Below are positions 5,541 to 36,101 of a stretch of DNA of 64,000 nt, in pieces (position 1 is the stretch's first letter; the number at the start of each line of letters is the position of its first letter). The position numbers and the translations under genes were made by a program. Origin of the DNA: a virus; the UHGV virus genome UHGV-0279745; one strand, given 5' to 3'. Under the pieces are notes generated by a model. The model did no database searches and was not told the origin of the DNA. It saw only the letters and a program-made list of their open reading frames with translations.

Positions 5541-5568
5541 CTATTAGTCTTTTTTAGAGTGCGTGAAA

Positions 5569-5955
5569 ATGAATATCAGAACTATACTTTATACCATCAT
5601 TATTTTCTGTGCGGTCGGAATTACTGGCACTTATGCTTTCGGTGATTCAGATGTCCGTTATTACGAACCGGCTCCTGACTCACCGATTATCAACCCGGAT
5701 GAGACGCCTACGTTAATGCGCAGTTTCGGTAAACTACAAGTTTATCGTTTAGTGCGTGGTGAAACGTGTACGGGATTACTCATTGCTGACACCCGTGCAC
5801 AAGTCTACCAACGTCTGACGGATATCGCCTGCGAACAACCAAAAGTCATGTCAGTTAGTATCCATCCGCTATCAGTTGGTAACTATACCGCTGTGGACTT
5901 CTTTCACAACGCCGAATTAATCGGACGTGTTACCTTAAATCGCCCTGCTGAATAA
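5569..5955 (+). CDS. small exported or membrane protein
   Basis: ORF track (5563 GTG alternative start); hydrophobic N-terminal segment. Confidence 0.5.
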   Translation: MNIRTILYTIIIFCAVGITGTYAFGDSDVRYYEPAPDSPIINPDETPTLMRSFGKLQVYRLVRGETCTGLLIADTRAQVYQRLTDIACEQPKVMSVSIHPLSVGNYTAVDFFHNAELIGRVTLNRPAE

Positions 5956-5973
5956 TCTAAAGGAGTAGTTATA

Positions 5974-6459
5974 ATGAAACGTTTACACACATTGATGTTC
6001 TTTCTGGTTTTCTTGTTTATCGGTGTCACGCCAACTGTAGATGCGGCCTCCGTAGACGAATTGCTTACCTGCGATGGAAACGCTTGGGAAGGTCAGCCAA
6101 ATGCGTGCCCAAACATCAACGACTTGTACGATACCGATAAGTCGTTTAAAGCCGTTGTTGATAAAACATTAGACCCTGTGGGACTGGATGGTATGTTCGG
6201 CTCTAAAGGTTACATGGATGGCCCTGGTGGTAACATGTATCCGGTAAACATCAACAACAAAATCTGGATTGAAAGTGGCGGTTGTAAAGCTAACGCTTGT
6301 GGTTGGGAATACATCGTAACGCTATACAACCCACACACCAAGAAACTCGTCGGCTATTACTACAACATCGACCCCGGTTATCTGATTTGGTTCGGTGATA
6401 TCGGTGTTGCCGAATTCGCTTACCTGGTTAAGAAATACGTAGAACAATCTAAATACTAA
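5974..6459 (+). CDS. small secreted cysteine-containing protein
   Basis: ORF track; signal peptide ending VDA; strong RBS ctaaaggag; multiple Cys. Confidence 0.65.
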   Translation: MKRLHTLMFFLVFLFIGVTPTVDAASVDELLTCDGNAWEGQPNACPNINDLYDTDKSFKAVVDKTLDPVGLDGMFGSKGYMDGPGGNMYPVNINNKIWIESGGCKANACGWEYIVTLYNPHTKKLVGYYYNIDPGYLIWFGDIGVAEFAYLVKKYVEQSKY

Positions 6460-6470
6460 GGACTTTTATC

Positions 6471-6881
6471 ATGAAAACTATCATCAATACTCTTCTCATT
6501 GCAATGGCTGTTCTGTTCTCTGTCAACGCTACAGCAAAAACAATACAGTTGCCAGACAATATTAAGTACGTCAATAGTACCGATGATTTCTATTGTACGG
6601 AAATTGACGGGTTGTACTGCCAGGCGAAAAGCCTGTTTAAATACAAAGGTAGCAGATACGTATTCATCGTTGAGCAAGGTGGTGCCTGGTGCTACGACAG
6701 CCCAATGTCCGTACTCAACCTCGAAACGTGGAAGGCTCAGCGTCTCGAATACAACGACAAACGTCTGTGCTCTGGTAATAACAAACCATTCTTCGAAGTC
6801 GTAGATGGTGTGCCAATGGTAGGGATATTAGACACTTCGGAAAAACCTATCGTTGTAGCTATGGATAAACTTAAAATTTAA
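6471..6881 (+). CDS. small secreted cysteine-containing protein
   Basis: ORF track; signal peptide ending ATA; 5 Cys. Confidence 0.65.
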   Translation: MKTIINTLLIAMAVLFSVNATAKTIQLPDNIKYVNSTDDFYCTEIDGLYCQAKSLFKYKGSRYVFIVEQGGAWCYDSPMSVLNLETWKAQRLEYNDKRLCSGNNKPFFEVVDGVPMVGILDTSEKPIVVAMDKLKI

Positions 6882-6891
6882 GGAGTAACTC

Positions 6892-7281
6892 ATGCGTCTC
6901 GTCTGCGTTTTAGCATTCTTCTTCTCCCTGAGTGTAGCAGCATCTACTCAAGTTAACGATTTACTGCTAACCCCAAACAACAATACCGATTACCAGTACA
7001 ATCCTCCGGGGTTTGAAGTTTGTGAAGTCGGTGAAACAATCTGCCAAGAAGTCGGCGCAGACGGGCGCTATATTCTGGTAAAAGCTGATGGTGGCACAAT
7101 GTGTCCCGCAGGTTATTACTTTCTGCTCGATTCCGTCGCAAGAGAGGTTCTTCCTATCACCACGAAAACGTGCGACCCTACCGTTGTCTTAACTCTCGCT
7201 AAAAGCAAATCTCGCGACCGTTATCTGATCGTTATCGAAGAACGGGGCAAGATGGCTGGTGCTATCGAATTAGATCATTGA
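6892..7281 (+). CDS. small secreted cysteine-containing protein
   Basis: ORF track; signal peptide ending AAS; 4 Cys. Confidence 0.65.
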   Translation: MRLVCVLAFFFSLSVAASTQVNDLLLTPNNNTDYQYNPPGFEVCEVGETICQEVGADGRYILVKADGGTMCPAGYYFLLDSVAREVLPITTKTCDPTVVLTLAKSKSRDRYLIVIEERGKMAGAIELDH

Positions 7282-7289
7282 GTGTAGTC

Positions 7290-7320
7290 TTGGCCCCGAT
7301 ACGTTCGGGGTCCTTTTTAC
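7290..7320 (+). terminator. intrinsic terminator
   Basis: ggccccga/tcggggtcc hairpin plus T-run. Confidence 0.6.
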
Positions 7321-7347
7321 GACATGTTTACCTAAAGGAGTATTAAA

Positions 7348-8489: not shown

Positions 8490-8492
8490 CGT

Positions 8493-8540
8493 TTGGGAGA
8501 ACCTTCGGGTTCTCCCTTTCTTTATTTTTTTTTCTTTTTA
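8493..8540 (+). terminator. intrinsic terminator
   Basis: gggagaacc-ttcg-ggttctccc hairpin plus long T-run. Confidence 0.7.
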
Positions 8541-8569
8541 CACCACACTCCGTCTTTATGGAGGTGGGT

Positions 8570-11074
8570 ATGCTAAAAGTTGAACGGATTATACTCAAAG
8601 GTTTTACGGGGATGGGATTACATGAAATTGAAACCTTCGATTTCACTATCCAGTCTCCGACAACAATTATCCTGGGTGGGAACGGCTGCGGGAAAACCAG
8701 TCTACTGTCTGTGTTCCTACCCTTAGCACCGGCTAAAACCGAATTCAGGGACGGCGGTTCTTACACAAACTACTGTTTAGTTGGCGATCAACGCTATCGT
8801 TTCAAAGTTGCCCGTAAAGGCAACTCTTTGGTTTGCGATATTGAGAACCTGACCACGGGGGCAAAGATCGTCGAGCAAGGTAATGCGAAAGTCTACAACT
8901 CCCGTGTTGAAGAAATCACAGGTATTACAAAAGAGATTAAAGAATTATTAAATGGTGAGGTGTTGTTAACCGATGCGGGAACCGAATTACGCCGCAAATG
9001 GTTTTACCGTTTAAGTACCTCTGATCTCACTTACGCGTTAGGGTTTTATCAACGTTTACGTAAAAACCTTACTGCCTTAAATGGGGGTATTGAAATCACC
9101 AGCCGTAAGATCGCCGAATTACGGACGCGTGTTATTGAGAACGAGGAAGAACGGCAGCAGTTAGCGACGAGATTAAAAGGTTTGGAATCGGATTTACGTG
9201 AACTGAACCGAGAAATCGAACAGTTACCAGGATTAAATCGTGCCGTCACCATCGAAACAATCCAAGCGTTATTAAACAGCTTGGGTCCAACCATCGACGC
9301 AATATTACAACATCGTGGTGGATTGCCTACTGATGAACAGATACTGGCCGCGCGACAAAACGAAGCGACGGCCCGCGAAGCCGTCGTGTCTACTGAAACA
9401 GAGGTATCGATGTTGAATAAAGACTTGTCGCTACTGATGGATGAGTCGACACGACAAGACTACCTGATGCGGAATCACGAAGGTCTCAAGAATACACTGG
9501 CACGTTTACGTGAGTTACTTACCAAATGGGACACCGAGCATCTCTTTCCGGGTTTATTTAACGACAACATCAATTTAGACCAACTTCGTGCGGCTACCGA
9601 CGCGCGTGTTTGGGGGCAACGGTTAGGAACAACACTGGACGCAATTCATTCAACCGAAAAACTTAATGTTTTGGAAGAACGGCTTCTGGTGATGGATCAA
9701 AAAACCGCAGGGTTGCGGGATAGACTCCAGCGAGTGGAGAACGTTTTACAGAATTTAAATCACGAACGTAATCACTACTTAGAAACAGCGGAAGTGGATT
9801 GCCCGCAGTGTCGGTTTAAGTTCCGTCCTGGCGTTACGCGTTCTTTACCTGAACTTGAGTCTTCGATTCGCGGACAACAACAGCAGCGCACGGAACTGCA
9901 AACGCAGTTAGAGACTCTATTACGCGATCGTGTTGAGTTAGAATCCGATGTAACTTATATGCGGCAGGTTCGTGAGATTGTACTGACGTATTCAAAGGAC
10001 CCGGTATTGAGCATGTTCTTTAAGCGTTTGCAAGAACGTAACGTTTTCACAGAATCACGTGAACAGTTCGGGAGTCTATGCGCAGCGTTTGACAGTGAGT
10101 TGTACTCTGCTATTGAGTACCATGAAACCCGTCAACGGTTAGTGAAGGCGGAAAAAGAATGGCAGGATGCCGTGGCGGCCGTTGGTAACGTCGATGGTGC
10201 TTTACAACAGAAAATTGCTTTCCAACAGTCACGATTAGGTAAAGCCACAGAGATGCTCTCAATGCGTCGTAGAGAGTACGAACTGGCTAACACGACACTT
10301 ACCTATCTGGTGAATGTTAAACGTGCTGTAGATGATTTCAGTGCGTTATTCGAACGGTTAGAGAGTGATGTTAAGGTTACGTTGACAAATACGGTCGTCG
10401 AGGAACTCTTACGTGCACGAGAAGGGAAGCTGGATGCTTTTACAACCGCACGCGAACGTTATCGTCAGATGGAAAATGAATTGAATCAGCTCAACAGTTT
10501 GGAACGCGAACTTGCTGACTTACAAGCCCAGCAATTCAATAACAAACTGATGATTCAAGCCTTCTCTCCAGAAAAGGGTGTACTTAGAAAGTATTTTTAC
10601 AACGCTATCGTTAGAATCACAGAGTTAATGACGCGTTATATCGAACAGGTCTGGACGTACCCCATGCGCGTTATGCCTTGTGACCTCACTGACGGCGATT
10701 TGGATTATACTTTTCCTGTCCAGCTAAAAACGCATCCTGAGCCTGTTCCTGACGTGCGTAAAGGGTCTAAGGCGCAGCGTGCGATATTTAATCTGATGTT
10801 CAGGCTGACTGCGTACAAAGCGCTGAAGTTGCATCAGTTTCCGTTGCTTTTGGATGAGCCTTCGGAAGGCATGGATGAGGAGCACCGTAACAACCTGGTC
10901 GGTTTTATTAAAACGTTAGCAAACTCGGGAGAATTTTCCCAACTGTTGGTAGTCTCCCACGAAGCCGAGGTTCATTCTAAACTTAATGAAGCATCGTACT
11001 GTGTCATCGAACCGGAAGGGGTGACATTGCCTGCGGTGTATAACGAAGGAGTAAAAATTGTTTATGCAAACTGA
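8570..11074 (+). CDS. SbcC/Rad50-like recombination ATPase
   Basis: Start moved to ATG 8570 (RBS GGAGGTGGG, downstream of terminator); Walker A GGNGCGKTS, long coiled-coil middle, CPQC zinc hook, C-terminal LLDEPSEGMD. Confidence 0.7.
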   Translation: MLKVERIILKGFTGMGLHEIETFDFTIQSPTTIILGGNGCGKTSLLSVFLPLAPAKTEFRDGGSYTNYCLVGDQRYRFKVARKGNSLVCDIENLTTGAKIVEQGNAKVYNSRVEEITGITKEIKELLNGEVLLTDAGTELRRKWFYRLSTSDLTYALGFYQRLRKNLTALNGGIEITSRKIAELRTRVIENEEERQQLATRLKGLESDLRELNREIEQLPGLNRAVTIETIQALLNSLGPTIDAILQHRGGLPTDEQILAARQNEATAREAVVSTETEVSMLNKDLSLLMDESTRQDYLMRNHEGLKNTLARLRELLTKWDTEHLFPGLFNDNINLDQLRAATDARVWGQRLGTTLDAIHSTEKLNVLEERLLVMDQKTAGLRDRLQRVENVLQNLNHERNHYLETAEVDCPQCRFKFRPGVTRSLPELESSIRGQQQQRTELQTQLETLLRDRVELESDVTYMRQVREIVLTYSKDPVLSMFFKRLQERNVFTESREQFGSLCAAFDSELYSAIEYHETRQRLVKAEKEWQDAVAAVGNVDGALQQKIAFQQSRLGKATEMLSMRRREYELANTTLTYLVNVKRAVDDFSALFERLESDVKVTLTNTVVEELLRAREGKLDAFTTARERYRQMENELNQLNSLERELADLQAQQFNNKLMIQAFSPEKGVLRKYFYNAIVRITELMTRYIEQVWTYPMRVMPCDLTDGDLDYTFPVQLKTHPEPVPDVRKGSKAQRAIFNLMFRLTAYKALKLHQFPLLLDEPSEGMDEEHRNNLVGFIKTLANSGEFSQLLVVSHEAEVHSKLNEASYCVIEPEGVTLPAVYNEGVKIVYAN

Positions 11075-11243
11075 TTGGTTCCGTCGTATTGTGGATGCGG
11101 TAGGGTTTGGCTTCATGTCCATTTTAGCGGTTCTTTATGTCATGTTTTGTGTGGTGATGATTTTATGGGTAGTTTCATCTTATCTGATTAAACTATCGTG
11201 GGGTTCAATTTGGCGTCAACGCGAATGCGAATGGCGGAATTAG
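11064..11243 (+). CDS. small membrane protein (59 aa), translationally coupled to the SbcC-like gene
   Basis: ATG at 11064 with GAAGGAG RBS inside the 3' end of the upstream gene; one hydrophobic helix. Confidence 0.5.
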   Translation: MQTDWFRRIVDAVGFGFMSILAVLYVMFCVVMILWVVSSYLIKLSWGSIWRQRECEWRN

Positions 11244-11253
11244 GAGAGGGAAT

Positions 11254-11352
11254 ATGGTTGTAGGGGTTCTGTTAACACTTGGCTCGTTGTGGTTAATTGG
11301 TAAAGGTTTAAACTGGCTGATTAAACGTCACCGTTGGGCGTTCGAAGATTAA
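11254..11352 (+). CDS. tiny membrane protein (32 aa)
   Basis: GGAGAGGG RBS then ATG; MVVGVLLTLGSLWLIGKG... single TM helix; not in ORF track. Confidence 0.3.
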   Translation: MVVGVLLTLGSLWLIGKGLNWLIKRHRWAFED

Positions 11353-11409
11353 CCACCCAAATAATCCAGAAGATACCCTCCGGTGTGAGGGTATTGACAG
11401 GAGCAGAAA

Positions 11410-11538
11410 ATGACCACGATAAACGCTACGAATGTAGCGATATCCGCACTATACGACGCGGAACTTTCATGGGGTGGATTAATAATCACCACAGCCATAT
11501 TAGCCGCTGCGGCTTTCGTCATCGCGCGTTGGTTTTAA
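11410..11538 (+). CDS. tiny membrane protein (42 aa)
   Basis: CAGGAG RBS then ATG; hydrophobic C-terminal helix; not in ORF track. Confidence 0.3.
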   Translation: MTTINATNVAISALYDAELSWGGLIITTAILAAAAFVIARWF

Positions 11539-11569
11539 TTTTACTTTTTTGCGTCTCTAAGGTTTGCAA

Positions 11570-12013
11570 ATGGAAATTTATTTGTTGAACGCATCTTCTA
11601 AAGTCGGTGAGCGACAAGCTGCCGATTTACTCAAACTACACTACCGTTACTTAGACCACCAGGCCACGTTACTGAAAATCAAAATGTCGGTGCCGAAGTT
11701 AAATGCGCGACAGCTGATCGAAGGTAACTGCATAGTTCTGGTGTATCAGGATGATGTCGCGGTAGGATACTGTAGTTATCGGAATCGTAACGGCTCACTT
11801 AAGATACGTTCGGTATACGTGCTCCCAGACCATCGTCAACGGGGTGTAATGAAAGAGATTTTCAAAGCAATTGCAGCTGATGAAGTTTTCGGCGAGATTG
11901 TTACTGGCATGTATGCGAAATGTAAAGAAGCAAAAGAGTATTTCATCCGACGCGGCTATCAGGCGGTTTACTCACGCGATCGTGAGTGGGTCGATTTTAG
12001 CAAAACATTCTAA
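11570..12013 (+). CDS. GNAT-family N-acetyltransferase (putative)
   Basis: ATG at 11570; GNAT motif A-like VLPDHRQRGVMKEIF. Confidence 0.55.
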   Translation: MEIYLLNASSKVGERQAADLLKLHYRYLDHQATLLKIKMSVPKLNARQLIEGNCIVLVYQDDVAVGYCSYRNRNGSLKIRSVYVLPDHRQRGVMKEIFKAIAADEVFGEIVTGMYAKCKEAKEYFIRRGYQAVYSRDREWVDFSKTF

Positions 12014-12079: not shown

Positions 12080-12325
12080 ATGTTAAAATCGTACGGAGTG
12101 GGTGGTTTGGATACGAGTATTTGTTGGAAAGAATACGAACGTGCGAAAGCGTTCTTACAGCATCCCAATGTGGGGACAATAGGTAAGGTCTGTTTCGGCA
12201 AACCTTCACTGACGGCTTGTATCCAAGGGGCTTTAGGGACGTTGCCACCCGAAACACATTTCGAGCCTGAGGAGAATATGAATGTTCACAGAGAACCCAT
12301 CAATTTACGGCATACCGTTGAATGA
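12080..12325 (+). CDS. hypothetical protein
   Basis: ORF track; RBS caggagagc; overlaps next gene by 44 nt. Confidence 0.45.
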   Translation: MLKSYGVGGLDTSICWKEYERAKAFLQHPNVGTIGKVCFGKPSLTACIQGALGTLPPETHFEPEENMNVHREPINLRHTVE

Positions 12326-12650
12326 AATTGATATTCTGCAAATTTGTTATCAGTGCGGCGACTTCGGTAAGACACAAGTAACGCCGTTAGTTAAGCTTTT
12401 AGGTTACTTGCCTGAAATCGAGTTACCTTTTGTTAAACCTAGCTTAGTTCGTCGCGCATCGTGTCGCGAAGCTTATTTGCTCTGGAAACACAATATTTCA
12501 GTAGAGAAGGTCTGGGACCGTATGAACGATCATCAGTTCCGTGAGCAGGTCGTGCACACGCTTAACTTGGCACTGACTATGCAACGCCTGGGCTTACAAC
12601 ACGAGGGTTTAGAAGCGGCGGTCAAGCAATGGATTACGAAAAATCGATAA
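12282..12650 (+). CDS. hypothetical protein
   Basis: ORF track; RBS gaggaga. Confidence 0.5.
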   Translation: MFTENPSIYGIPLNEIDILQICYQCGDFGKTQVTPLVKLLGYLPEIELPFVKPSLVRRASCREAYLLWKHNISVEKVWDRMNDHQFREQVVHTLNLALTMQRLGLQHEGLEAAVKQWITKNR

Positions 12651-12737
12651 TGGGTAAAACATATATCGCTATACTTGTCGAGCTATCAATCGGCGGTACA
12701 CGTTTTAATACTACACATCAACTCCGGGCGTTTCGTT

Positions 12738-13235
12738 ATGTTAACGGTACGTAAAGAATCTGAAATTGGTAACGATCTTTTTAATGCGCCCGAAGACTAT
12801 AAAGTCGTTACCATTAATTGCGTAGGAGCGATGGGTCGCGGTATTGCACTCGCGTGTCGTGAACGCTACCCCAACCTTTACCAGGATTATCGTAAGCGGT
12901 GTCGTGAAAACGAAATTAAGATTGGAAACGTTTACGTTTACTCTGACGAAAAGTGTATCTTGCTCCCCACGAAAACCCATTGGCGCTTAAAGTCCCAGGT
13001 TTCTTATGTTACTGCGGGCATTACCGCACTAGCGGATTGTGCTGAGGATCTGGATACCAGCGTTGCTATCCCTCCACTGGGAATGGCAAACGGGTGGTTA
13101 GATTCCTGGGAAAGACAAGAAATCTTTTTGTGGCTTTACAAAAAACTTGAATCAAGGAGACAACACTACACGTTATACTTACCTGATAAGTTGTACCAAG
13201 AAGCAGAGTCATTAATTCCAAACTCTTTTAAATAG
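12738..13235 (+). CDS. macro-domain-like protein (tentative; ADP-ribose binding/processing fold)
   Basis: ATG 12738 preferred over TTG 12675; motif VTINCVGAMGRGIALA resembles the macro-domain glycine-rich loop; assignment from motif only. Confidence 0.4.
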   Translation: MLTVRKESEIGNDLFNAPEDYKVVTINCVGAMGRGIALACRERYPNLYQDYRKRCRENEIKIGNVYVYSDEKCILLPTKTHWRLKSQVSYVTAGITALADCAEDLDTSVAIPPLGMANGWLDSWERQEIFLWLYKKLESRRQHYTLYLPDKLYQEAESLIPNSFK

Positions 13236-13253: not shown

Positions 13254-13335
13254 ACAACAAAGGAGTATTAGCTGTCCGCGCCGTCATTTCGTCTTACGGA
13301 ATACGGAAATGTATAAATCCAACTGGAGAAACAAA

Positions 13336-14034
13336 ATGTTTCGTATCTTCTTTCTTTTACTGGTAACACTTTTCGCGTTTAACGCACAGGCGTCAACGTC
13401 AACGCCACATTCTAAGCATCAGCGTGAGTTTGCACAAATCCAACATCGGTTCGAAAAAGTCAGCCCGTTAATTGTGGAAATCTCACGAAAGCAGGGCGTT
13501 GATCCCAAGCTGATGATTACGCTGATTTATCGTGAATCGCGTTTTGATCCCAAGGCTTACAACAAAAGCTCACGAGCACATAGCCTGGTACAAATGCTTC
13601 CAAGTACCAAACGTAATCTGCTAAAGCTTTATGGAAAAGAATTAGGTCTTAGTCAGAACGCCGATTTGTATAATCCGCGCAACGCTGTTTTGCTGGCTAC
13701 CGCGTATGTTAAACATCTTGAGAAGGGGTTAACCAAACGACTCAAACGCAAGCCCACCATGGCTGAAATTGCGTTAGCTTACCACTGGGGTGAAAGTGGC
13801 GCTCACACGCGAATCAAAAGCAAATCTCGAGCAGCACAACGAGAAATGGCAGGCTTTATGAAAGACGCCGCGTTCTATAGCGCGAAAATCGATGTGCCTG
13901 TTGTTGTGGGCTCGGCCCCACGTCAGCTTGCGTTTGCGAAGAAAACACCACGTCAGATTCAACTGGCGGAAGTTAGTAGAATTTGGGATACGATAAACAC
14001 GAGTTTTCCAATCAATAGAGGAGTTACCCTTTGA
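13336..14034 (+). CDS. secreted lytic transglycosylase (SLT domain)
   Basis: ATG 13336 with GGAGA RBS; signal peptide MFRIFFLLLVTLFAFNAQA; SLT motif ESRFDPKAYNKSSRAHSLVQMLPST. Confidence 0.6.
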   Translation: MFRIFFLLLVTLFAFNAQASTSTPHSKHQREFAQIQHRFEKVSPLIVEISRKQGVDPKLMITLIYRESRFDPKAYNKSSRAHSLVQMLPSTKRNLLKLYGKELGLSQNADLYNPRNAVLLATAYVKHLEKGLTKRLKRKPTMAEIALAYHWGESGAHTRIKSKSRAAQREMAGFMKDAAFYSAKIDVPVVVGSAPRQLAFAKKTPRQIQLAEVSRIWDTINTSFPINRGVTL

Positions 14035-14540: not shown

Positions 14541-14544
14541 TCCC

Positions 14545-14586
14545 TACCCCTTACCCTATACGGTGTAAGGGGTACTTTTATTTTCA
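14545..14586 (+). terminator. intrinsic terminator
   Basis: ccccttac/gtaagggg hairpin plus T-run. Confidence 0.6.
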
Positions 14587-14606
14587 TTCCCTAAAGGAGC
14601 AGAGTT

Positions 14607-15086
14607 ATGATAAAATTCATTTGGCGTTATCCAACGCGTTTTTGGTTTGTGGTACTTGAACTGTGTATGGTTCTTGTAGCGGTTACTTTTGTCGAAGCGC
14701 CCGCCTCGCAGTTGGCCATTTTCTGCCTTTTCGTGACTGTCCCTGTATGGGTGATTGCGAAGGCTATTAAGTTCGTCATGGTGTGTTGGGCGAATTATAC
14801 CTGTCCGTATAAGCCTAAACAAATCATGAAATGGCTGATGTATATTGAAGAACGTTTACCGGCGCAACATAAATTACTGGGCTGGTCGTCAATGTTGGAT
14901 ATTGCACTAGAAACCAATGCAAAGTTCCCCGGTGCGAAAAACCCTTATTTGTTGATGGCGGTAATTGTTGCACAACAAAAACTGGTGGGTGACCGTTGGT
15001 TGCCAGAAGAAGCGAAAGCGTATATCCGTAAACATCCAAAAGCTTTTTACTCGGTAGGACAATGGCGTAACTTGCCATTATTTTAA
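14607..15086 (+). CDS. membrane protein (multiple predicted TM helices)
   Basis: ORF track; RBS cctaaaggagc; hydrophobic N-terminal half. Confidence 0.65.
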   Translation: MIKFIWRYPTRFWFVVLELCMVLVAVTFVEAPASQLAIFCLFVTVPVWVIAKAIKFVMVCWANYTCPYKPKQIMKWLMYIEERLPAQHKLLGWSSMLDIALETNAKFPGAKNPYLLMAVIVAQQKLVGDRWLPEEAKAYIRKHPKAFYSVGQWRNLPLF

Positions 15087-16076: not shown

Positions 16077-16083
16077 TTTAAAT

Positions 16084-16118
16084 CCCCTACTCCTCCGGGA
16101 GTAGGGTTAATTCTTTTT
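16084..16118 (+). terminator. intrinsic terminator (CCCTACTCC/GGAGTAGGG stem family)
   Basis: ccctactcc-tccg-ggagtaggg plus T-run. Confidence 0.7.
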
Positions 16119-16137
16119 CCACCTTAGGAGTATTAAA

Positions 16138-18757: not shown

Positions 18758-19261
18758 ATGGGTTCATTTTTTAAAGTGCTTCCGTTCTTCCTTCAGATGT
18801 TAATGGAAGCATTTAAACCAGGAGAAGGAGAAAACGTATCAAGAGCAAGCAAGATAATGACTTTAATCATCACGATCTTGTTGTCGTATTCTGGCTTCGT
18901 CTCCTACGCCTATGTACAACAGTTTCACGCGCTCGTTGCAGTGCAGTCTCATGACACTTATATGTCGCAGTCTTACCAAGAGATGAAACAAGATCGAGAT
19001 AAACTAAAAGAAGATAATGGGAAGTTATACGACAGGCTCTTCGTTTGCCTCGGCCAGAAACCGCCATATGAAAGCACGTTTAATTCATCGAAAGCGAGCG
19101 GTACGGCGAAGGATCTGTCTTCGACAAAACCAGAAACTCCTGTTAATCCAGCTTCAACACCAGAACAACGTAAAGAGGCTTCGGCGAGACCTGTTGGCAA
19201 TTTAAATGCGAACAGTTTTCGACAGGAGATCATAAAGACGCTAACGTCTTCTAAGGAGTGA
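18758..19261 (+). CDS. membrane-anchored hypothetical protein
   Basis: ORF track; RBS GAGGTGA; N-terminal hydrophobic segments. Confidence 0.55.
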   Translation: MGSFFKVLPFFLQMLMEAFKPGEGENVSRASKIMTLIITILLSYSGFVSYAYVQQFHALVAVQSHDTYMSQSYQEMKQDRDKLKEDNGKLYDRLFVCLGQKPPYESTFNSSKASGTAKDLSSTKPETPVNPASTPEQRKEASARPVGNLNANSFRQEIIKTLTSSKE

Positions 19262-19264
19262 TTG

Positions 19265-19720
19265 ATGAAAATGCTGTTATTCATCATGATGGTGTTCGTG
19301 GGGTTGGTGAGTAATAGCTACGGCGACGAAGTTAAACGTCCAGCTTATAGGCCACTGGAACTTCCTCCTACACCACCAATAATGGTGAATTGGAAAATTG
19401 ACAATAATGCAATGCGTGAGTATGTTGCGGATGTCAACACCTATGCTTACTACGTTTATGTCTACACCCGAAATTTAAACCAACAAGCCGTTAAACGTGG
19501 CTGGAGCCCACCAATGCTGGCTCCACTTTGTGAGCGTTATGAGTTACCGAAGTTACATGTTGTACCTGAACGCTTATCTCTTGACGAAAGCTCTTTAACG
19601 CCCCAGGAGATTAGCCGTGACCTATCGCGTAAACTCAATAATTTGTTGTGGAATTACCGTTCCGACCGTCAGACACTACTCGATTCGTATAACCAATACT
19701 TGACATCGTGTTTGTACTGA
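19265..19720 (+). CDS. secreted hypothetical protein
   Basis: ATG 19265 with TAAGGAG RBS; N-terminal signal-like MKMLLFIMMVFVGLVSNSYG. Confidence 0.55.
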   Translation: MKMLLFIMMVFVGLVSNSYGDEVKRPAYRPLELPPTPPIMVNWKIDNNAMREYVADVNTYAYYVYVYTRNLNQQAVKRGWSPPMLAPLCERYELPKLHVVPERLSLDESSLTPQEISRDLSRKLNNLLWNYRSDRQTLLDSYNQYLTSCLY

Positions 19721-25066: not shown

Positions 25067-25070
25067 TAGA

Positions 25071-25104
25071 CACCCTAGCTTCGGCTAGGGTTACTTTATT
25101 TTTA
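25071..25104 (+). terminator. intrinsic terminator
   Basis: ccctagc-ttcg-gctaggg plus T-run. Confidence 0.65.
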
Positions 25105-25125
25105 ACCATTTTAGGAGAATAAACC

Positions 25126-36038: not shown

Positions 36039-36040
36039 CA

Positions 36041-36082
36041 CCCACCCTACTCCTGACTAGGAGTAGGGTATTTTCATTTTTT
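36041..36082 (+). terminator. intrinsic terminator (CCCTACTCC/GGAGTAGGG stem family)
   Basis: ccctactcc-tgacta-ggagtaggg plus T-run. Confidence 0.7.
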
Positions 36083-36101
36083 ACCCTAAAGGAGAATTAC
36101 C

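Follow-up and report, generated by a model that had tools for sequence, protein, structure and literature searches.

Directly downstream of an SbcC-like gene in the viral genome UHGV-0279745, of which a stretch of 64,000 nucleotides was analysed (hereafter the window), three tiny open reading frames (ORFs) follow one another on the same strand. We call them ORFs A, B and D, after the families in which each of them falls. From comparisons with related phages we predict with confidence that A, B and D are genuine, conserved protein-coding genes under purifying selection, and identify them as diverged members of hypothetical-protein families that have already been deposited for SPN3US-like jumbo phages. 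The account of their function that we favour, with moderate confidence, is that they would be accessory inner-membrane micro-proteins acting on the envelope, encoded in a lineage-specific cassette that is co-expressed with the SbcC-like gene, and that they would be neither a holin nor an obligate partner of SbcC. The features discussed are collected in Table 1.

Table 1. Features of the SbcC-GNAT interval in the window, with the five micro-protein families of the cassette (TM, transmembrane)
Feature	Position	Strand	Description
Terminator-like GC hairpin with T-run	8495-8516	+	9-bp stem, 6 GC pairs; directly upstream of the SbcC-like gene
SbcC/SMC-like ATPase gene	8561-11074	+	837 amino acids; ATG 8561, stop TGA 11072-11074
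Shine-Dalgarno of ORF A, AAGGAG	11046-11051	+	inside conserved N-E-G-V codons of SbcC
ORF A	11058/11064-11243	+	61/59 amino acids; stop TAG 11241-11243; one TM-grade hydrophobic helix
ORF B	11254-11352	+	32 amino acids; Shine-Dalgarno AGGAG 11242-11246; N-terminal hydrophobic helix, then basic tail KRHRWAFED
RNA hairpin in the B-D spacer	11372-11395	+	9-bp stem GATACCCTC / GAGGGTATT, 6-nucleotide loop, no T-run
ORF D	11410-11538	+	42 amino acids; Shine-Dalgarno AGGAG 11399-11403; TM helix nearly to the C-terminus (..ARWF)
GNAT acetyltransferase gene	11570-12013	+	Pfam Acetyltransf_7/1/10, phrog_3810; downstream boundary of the cassette
Family A	overlaps/abuts SbcC stop		57-66 amino acids; window ORF A; phrog_16515
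Family B			32-46 amino acids; motif LWLIGKxxxWIIKxKGWAF; window ORF B; phrog_13448
Family C	absent from window		65-71 amino acids; two hydrophobic segments; ..PPLLRDPAYD; phrog_18173
Family D			42-43 amino acids; MTxxNxxNA...W(L)F; SPN3US gp189; window ORF D; phrog_29196
Family E	absent from window		34-39 amino acids; ..ALTQGWF; no PHROG

A first-pass annotation, made from the sequence of the window, had proposed an ORF of 59 amino acids that overlaps the end of the SbcC-like gene and has its own ribosome-binding site, followed by ORFs of 32 and 42 amino acids, each with a ribosome-binding site and one hydrophobic helix. All three were found on the + strand where they had been placed, and the first of them probably starts 6 nucleotides earlier. 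Both strands of the window were scanned for ORFs of 30-70 amino acids with a Shine-Dalgarno (SD) core of at least 5 nucleotides, located 4-11 nucleotides upstream of the start, and a maximal 17-residue Kyte-Doolittle mean of at least 1.75, and A, B and D were the sole ORFs recovered. Their frames are all intact in 10 related metagenomic phage genomes of about 224 kb, drawn from IMG/VR and from ENA/NCBI contigs; L009, L010 and L022-L027 are close to the window, and L011 and L012, which form a sister clade, share 94% identity with it over the C-terminal part of SbcC. The first-pass annotation had made its proposal depend on whether the reading frames are kept in related genomes, and they are kept from the clade of the window to Erskinevirus, Seoulvirus and Machinavirus.

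The substitutions between the window and L011 carry the same message. The ratio of nonsynonymous to synonymous rates (dN/dS) in frame was 0.35 for A, 0.38 for B and 0.16 for D, with an excess of changes at third positions, while the other two sense frames gave about 0.9-6.5 in five of six cases, the exception being the +1 frame of B (0.45). An antisense ORF of 57 amino acids at 11349-11522 shares the wobble positions of D and could mimic its signal, but this ORF contains stop codons in L010, L011 and L012. Another ORF that overlaps D in the sense direction (11334-11588) gains a stop in L011 and L012. Because the three ORFs are unique in the window scan, keep their frames in relatives and have low dN/dS, and because the competing frames are broken, they go beyond what chance would be expected to produce. 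That they are chance ORFs in an untranslated intergenic spacer is hardly credible. What could speak for such an origin is that B and D lie under common gene-caller thresholds and were left uncalled on the six related contigs listed, and that B is unannotated in Asesino and SPN3US. It is countered by the strength and correct spacing of the SD sequences, by the uniqueness of the three ORFs in the scan, by frames kept across 11 genomes with the substitution pattern just described, by amino-acid conservation between genera whose DNA no longer aligns, and by membership of PHROG families; these comparative data effectively refute it.

The final 29 nucleotides of the SbcC-like gene hold both the SD sequence and the start codon of ORF A. 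Two start codons are possible in frame, an ATG at 11064, giving 59 amino acids, and a TTG at 11058, giving 61; the first lies 12 nucleotides from the SD sequence and overlaps the SbcC stop by 11 nucleotides, the second lies 6 nucleotides from it and overlaps by 17. When the sister clade was aligned, L011 and L012 had ACG at the position of the ATG and retained the TTG and an SD sequence, the hexamer being altered solely in L012, to GAGGAG. The A homologue of phiEaH2 has a TTG at equal SD spacing, and the Seoulvirus phages have an ATG there. Given the retention of the TTG and its SD sequence in L011 and L012, the loss of the ATG, and the TTG of phiEaH2 at like spacing, position 11058 is the more likely start. 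An SD sequence embedded in the end of SbcC is likewise found in phiEaH2, SPAsTU and pEa_SNUABM_29 (pEa_29 below). A dual-start motif like that of lambda S (TTG-TTT-ATG) was considered for ORF A and dropped, the ATG not being conserved in L011 and L012.

The spacing of the genes is equally compact further downstream. The SD sequence of ORF B overlaps the TAG stop of ORF A, and 6 nucleotides lie between the SD sequence of ORF D and its ATG. The spacer between B and D has 57 nucleotides and contains an RNA hairpin with a fold energy of -16.7 kcal/mol (z -2.7), the outer stem of which is able to pair with the GGA of the SD sequence of D. Folding and alignment placed a hairpin of different sequence at the equivalent spot in L011 (-21.1 kcal/mol). 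It may serve as an attenuator, as a site of processing or in the control of translation.

A second hairpin, of the terminator-like kind, precedes the SbcC-like gene, and a hairpin is conserved at this place in Asesino, SPN3US, SPAsTU and pEa_29. The hairpin of the window likely marks the start of a transcription unit made up of SbcC and the three micro-ORFs. Because no comparable terminator was found between SbcC and ORF D, the simplest reading places A, B and D as distal cistrons on the mRNA of SbcC, and translational coupling from SbcC to A and from A to B is predicted, since the SD sequence and start of A lie inside the end of SbcC and the SD sequence of B overlaps the stop of A. Of the first-pass description, the part that speaks of membrane proteins coupled to the SbcC-like gene thus stands, as the ORFs are conserved, hydrophobic and tightly packed; the part that likens them to holins and antiholins does not, as discussed below. 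A scan of the window for sigma-70 promoters gave fewer sites than were found in shuffled controls. Many junctions in the window consist of a GC-rich hairpin (often ACCCTA../..TAGGGT), a T-run, a 'TTTTTAC'-like stretch and then an SD sequence (CTAAAGGAG), with examples at 7282-7347, 8490-8560, 14541-14606, 16077-16137, 25067-25125 and 36039-36101. This repeated architecture suggests coupled terminator and promoter modules. The definition of a promoter class from the intergenic motif of hairpin, T-run and 'TTTTTAC' was attempted and dropped, the short motif being insufficiently specific.

All three predicted proteins contain one hydrophobic segment, the maximal 17-residue Kyte-Doolittle mean being 2.95 for A, 1.79 for B and 2.45 for D. 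For A, AlphaFold2 run with the family alignment gave one continuous helix from residue 2 to residue 57 with a mean pLDDT (predicted local distance difference test) of 84, and its hydrophobic TM core spans about residues 22-40; a model of A as a helical hairpin with two TM segments was rejected on this result. Invariant in family A are an N-proximal R, an intramembrane Y..FC, a Y, and the E-(W)-R of a C-terminal RxCEWR motif. ORF B has no N-terminal tail, its sequence opening with the hydrophobic helix. ORF B and its homologues never have a basic residue N-terminal to the helix, where an acidic one is often found, and a tail with two to four K/R follows the helix, so that an N-out/C-in topology with a short basic cytoplasmic tail may be inferred. 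The N-terminal 20-24 residues of ORF D are rich in N, T and A, with no K/R and one or two acidic residues, and this tail of about 20 residues is probably periplasmic.

The SbcC-like protein of the window, which matches the SbcC-like subunit family phrog_77 (E 1.8e-91), is 71% identical to Asesino gp207 and its phiEaH2 counterpart (Erskinevirus), 58-60% to those of SPN3US-type Salmonella phages (Seoulvirus; 58% amino-acid identity for SPN3US gp186) and about 52% to those of Machinavirus. On these identities the window is assigned to an SPN3US/Erskinevirus-like jumbo phage. Phages of the same type are represented by hundreds of public metagenome contigs of about 224 kb, and 289 indexed blocks of the collection contain the A protein; some homologues carry the NCBI labels of Shigella flexneri, E. 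coli and Salmonella Chester assemblies. A megablast search of the region against cultured phages, complete E. coli genomes and plasmids gave no match, and the DNA of the window aligns with that of cultured relatives only over the 3' end of SbcC.

In each genus of the SPN3US group that was checked, the interval between SbcC and the GNAT gene, which is syntenic in all relatives, holds several micro-ORFs in succession, all pointing the same way and with hydrophobic helices, and these fall into the five families of Table 1. A and B form a constant core present in all four lineages, and C, D and E are patchy. The order is A-B-hairpin-D in the clade of the window including L011 and L012, A-B-C-E in Erskinevirus, A-B-C-D-E in SPN3US and SPAsTU, and A-B-D-E in pEa_29. 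The three window ORFs belong to this cassette by family match, by their syntenic position between SbcC and GNAT, and by one helix of TM length in a protein of about 30-66 amino acids. ORF A matches phrog_16515 (E 8.4e-5) and is a homologue of SPN3US gp187 and Asesino gp208; a profile built on A recovers the members from SPAsTU, phiEaH2 and SPN3US-type phages with E-values of 1e-20 to 1e-24. ORF B matches phrog_13448 (E 6.6e-14) and is the most conserved member of the cassette, with syntenic tblastn matches in 14 Erwinia and Salmonella jumbo phages. ORF D had no direct PHROG match above the reporting threshold and none by tblastn when used alone, as a short query of low complexity. It is 39-41% identical to SPN3US gp189, which belongs to phrog_29196, and to its homologues in SPAsTU and pEa_29, and a joint profile of D and the gp189-type proteins recovers both groups; we thus classify it, from these comparisons, as a diverged member of phrog_29196. 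A possible relationship of D and E as paralogues was dropped, as hhalign finds none.

The identity of the window proteins to their homologues in cultured phages is 22-37% for A, 38-63% for B and 39-41% for D. The cassettes of SPN3US (gp187 and gp189), Asesino (gp208) and phiEaH2 (AFQ96656-AFQ96657) are true homologues in the equivalent genomic position; they agree with the window ORFs in size, in having just one hydrophobic helix and in overlapping the stop of SbcC. The window differs in having neither the two-TM member C nor member E ('..ALTQGWF'), and in having a hairpin spacer between B and D. The three PHROGs of A, B and D are annotated as 'unknown function', and the genes of relatives as hypothetical proteins. 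Profile searches with A, B and D in 5.8 billion clustered proteins returned only this phage group, with no Pfam domain or informative name, and the A profile, run exhaustively with HMMER against 1.84 billion representatives, had no match outside this phage clade. No match for A, B or D was obtained in Pfam, NCBIfam or PADLOC. Small TM ORFs are also present in the equivalent slot of Derbicusvirus, at 4307-4600 of L016 (Phobos) and 4321-4736 of L017 (pEa_SNUABM_38), the first of them overlapping or closely following the SbcC stop. Their candidacy as diverged homologues of A, B or D was dropped, as hhalign shows no relationship. In phiKZ-type KEN19, RAY, Goslar and Noxifer, no TM micro-ORF was found at the SbcC gene.

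We consider that, in the SPN3US-like jumbo phages, a cassette of two to five membrane micro-proteins (A-E) would fill the slot between SbcC and GNAT, shared by Seoulvirus, Erskinevirus, Machinavirus and the uncultured enterobacterial clade of the window. A, B and D would be translated from the SbcC mRNA in the replication phase, would insert into the host inner membrane as single-pass proteins, and would serve as accessory factors, dispensable and quick to evolve, at the envelope of the host, where they may bind host membrane proteins or exclude superinfecting phage. Such an accessory role is supported by the restriction of the cassette to certain lineages and by the turnover of its content (C and E are missing in the clade of the window, and C in pEa_29), by the non-homologous TM ORFs in the slot of Derbicusvirus and the absence of TM micro-ORFs at the SbcC gene of the phiKZ-type phage, RAY, Goslar and Noxifer, and by a neighbourhood rich in envelope-directed products (the ORFs at 5563-7281, a lytic transglycosylase at 13309-14034 and a two-TM protein encoded at 14607-15086). 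A precedent for the placement is T4 Imm, an accessory, envelope-acting inner-membrane protein of 83 amino acids that confers superinfection immunity and is likewise small and encoded inside a replication cluster, between genes 42 and 43; it differs from A, B and D in being larger, and family searches reveal no sequence relationship. The first-pass annotation had also offered 'small membrane modulators', and this seems the best available description of the three proteins.

The suggestion that the ORFs are holin- or antiholin-like fared less well. If one or more of A, B and D were a holin, pinholin or antiholin, they would permeabilise or depolarise the inner membrane, and their small size, the single TM helix, the charged C-terminal tail in A and B and the clustering of several such genes would all be in keeping with this, as would the muralytic SLT-domain protein with a signal peptide encoded 1.8 kb downstream (13309-14034). 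Member C of the relatives, with two TM segments, a basic N-terminus and a charged C-terminus in 65-71 amino acids, also resembles the outline of a class-II holin. Like the known holins (lambda S105 of class I, the pinholin S21 of class II, T4 T and phiKZ gp142 of class III), A, B and D are predicted to be phage proteins of the inner membrane, with one or more TM helices and charges at their termini; unlike them, they lie outside any lysis cassette and share an operon with a replication and repair gene, and searches of Pfam, PHROGs and NCBIfam matched them to no family of holins or lysis proteins. The predicted co-transcription and coupling with such a gene is atypical for late lysis genes, and there is no adjoining endolysin or spanin, the genes for GNAT, for a 122-amino-acid ORF and for a macro-domain protein separating the cassette from the SLT gene. 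The SLT protein, moreover, carries its own signal peptide, the content of the cassette varies (C and E are lost in the window), and D is nearly without a charged tail. In this phage lineage just one holin has been defined by experiment, phiKZ gp142. It is a protein of another kind that has a large cytoplasmic domain and is encoded in an endolysin-spanin cassette, with genes for spanins, a regulator and the endolysin on its flanks (PMC12894885). Taken together, a lytic function of this kind appears unlikely, and the lysis holin is probably none of the three.

A closer functional tie to the neighbouring gene has also to be weighed, namely that A, perhaps with B, is a membrane tether or regulator of the SbcCD nuclease, binding the co-translated SbcC-like ATPase and holding this ATPase at the inner membrane. 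In SPN3US, gp187 (63 amino acids, TM) is encoded directly after the SbcC-like gp186, and the parallel with T4 gp47.1, and with it a possible tethering role, has been pointed out (Thomas et al. 2016, PMC5105663); gp47.1 was proposed as a membrane anchor for the gp46/gp47 nuclease (cited in PMC5105663), and it is a predicted membrane protein of 46 amino acids, its gene sharing 4 nucleotides with the beginning of the sbcD-like gene 47. Also consistent with a tether are the TM ORF that overlaps or abuts the SbcC stop in every genus of the SPN3US group checked, including the non-homologous one of Derbicusvirus, the SD sequence of A written into conserved SbcC codons, and the conserved soluble C-terminal RxCEWR motif of A, a candidate binding site. 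The likeness to gp47.1 is that of a tiny predicted membrane protein whose gene overlaps that of an SbcCD/Mre11-Rad50-type subunit, with translational coupling implied. In contrast to A, the T4 gene lies upstream of the sbcD-like gene 47 and not downstream of an sbcC-like gene, and its product has two short hydrophobic segments instead of one long helix; there is no homology (hhalign probability 0.8%; different PHROGs, gp47.1 being in phrog_6693), and the anchoring role of gp47.1 is itself just a suggestion. The SbcC genes of phiKZ-type phage, RAY, Goslar and Noxifer have no adjoining TM micro-ORF, so SbcC function would have no general need for one. Finally, SPN3US encodes a diverged chimallin homologue and shows a shell lattice (PMC9365700), so that replicating DNA would be expected inside the protein nucleus, beyond the reach of a tether at the inner membrane. 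On balance we find such a tether improbable. A variant in which A and B together tether or gate the SbcC-like ATPase at the inner membrane, or at an early membrane-bound infection vesicle, in the SPN3US branch is quite improbable. If it were true, DNA-end processing would be tied to a membrane compartment that either precedes the chimallin nucleus or lies outside it. The trace left by this link between SbcC and the membrane would then be the constant position of a TM micro-ORF at the SbcC stop from genus to genus, even where homology is lacking.

Several points nevertheless weigh against accessory inner-membrane micro-proteins as the full explanation. Every SPN3US-group genus checked has a small TM ORF abutting or overlapping the stop of SbcC, even where the sequences are unrelated, and this positional constancy could reflect a real functional link to SbcC and not operon packing. 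The topologies of A, B and D derive from hydropathy and the positive-inside rule alone; the orientation of A is ambiguous, because basic residues are present on both flanks of its helix, and the hydrophobicity of B is marginal in several homologues (19-residue Kyte-Doolittle means of 1.3-1.8, with K/R in mid-span), so that the helix of B could be interfacial and not span the membrane.

A lysis cassette of the phage itself was sought in the window, and no PHROG annotated with lysis was found. The gene pair at 18758-19720 has a spanin-like layout, and its PHROGs (phrog_8719 and phrog_8165) are annotated as unknown function. The first protein has 167 amino acids, one TM segment at about residues 33-53 and then a charged, disordered region; the second has 152 amino acids, a signal peptide and a Pro-rich start, with no lipobox cysteine. 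As a candidate spanin pair it fits in layout and was set aside, the lipobox being missing.

The wider neighbourhood contains other small or exported products. Upstream of the SbcC operon, four tandem ORFs at 5563-7281 (130, 161, 136 and 129 amino acids), each with an N-terminus like a signal peptide, look like an array of secreted paralogues. Downstream of GNAT, the small ORFs 12080-12325 (81 amino acids) and 12629-12754 (34-41 amino acids) are called as genes on related metagenomic contigs; they have no family match and are not hydrophobic. Near GNAT, a macro-domain protein is encoded at 12675-13235 (Pfam PF01661; phrog_335). A chimallivirus DarG2-like macro-domain anti-defence protein was described recently (PMC13309987), and the product of 12675-13235 may be related to it. 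The SLT-domain lytic transglycosylase has 241 amino acids, and its best PHROG match is to the interior of a far larger family of transglycosylases, phrog_4067; because of its N-terminal signal peptide it would be predicted to be exported independently of a holin.

Part of this picture was already known. SPN3US gp187, the homologue of A, had been noted as a TM protein next to SbcC (PMC5105663), where gp186 was found to be essential, and a further SPN3US paper makes no mention of gp187-190. The cassette is not a new kind of element, as homologues are deposited and one of them has been discussed in print. What is new here is the five-family cassette with its core of A and B, the probable TTG start of A, the purifying selection on A, B and D, the conserved hairpin between B and D, and the evidence against a role as holin. 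Gene callers overlook B and D in many assemblies of this enterobacterial jumbo phage, which is very common, and B is absent from the reference annotations of both SPN3US and Asesino. A compact membrane micro-protein cassette with fast turnover is tied to the expression of an essential SbcC-like gene in the genetically tractable SPN3US group. It offers a testable entry to the roles of small phage membrane proteins, and through it the long-standing idea that phage nucleases of the SbcCD type associate with the membrane can be examined.

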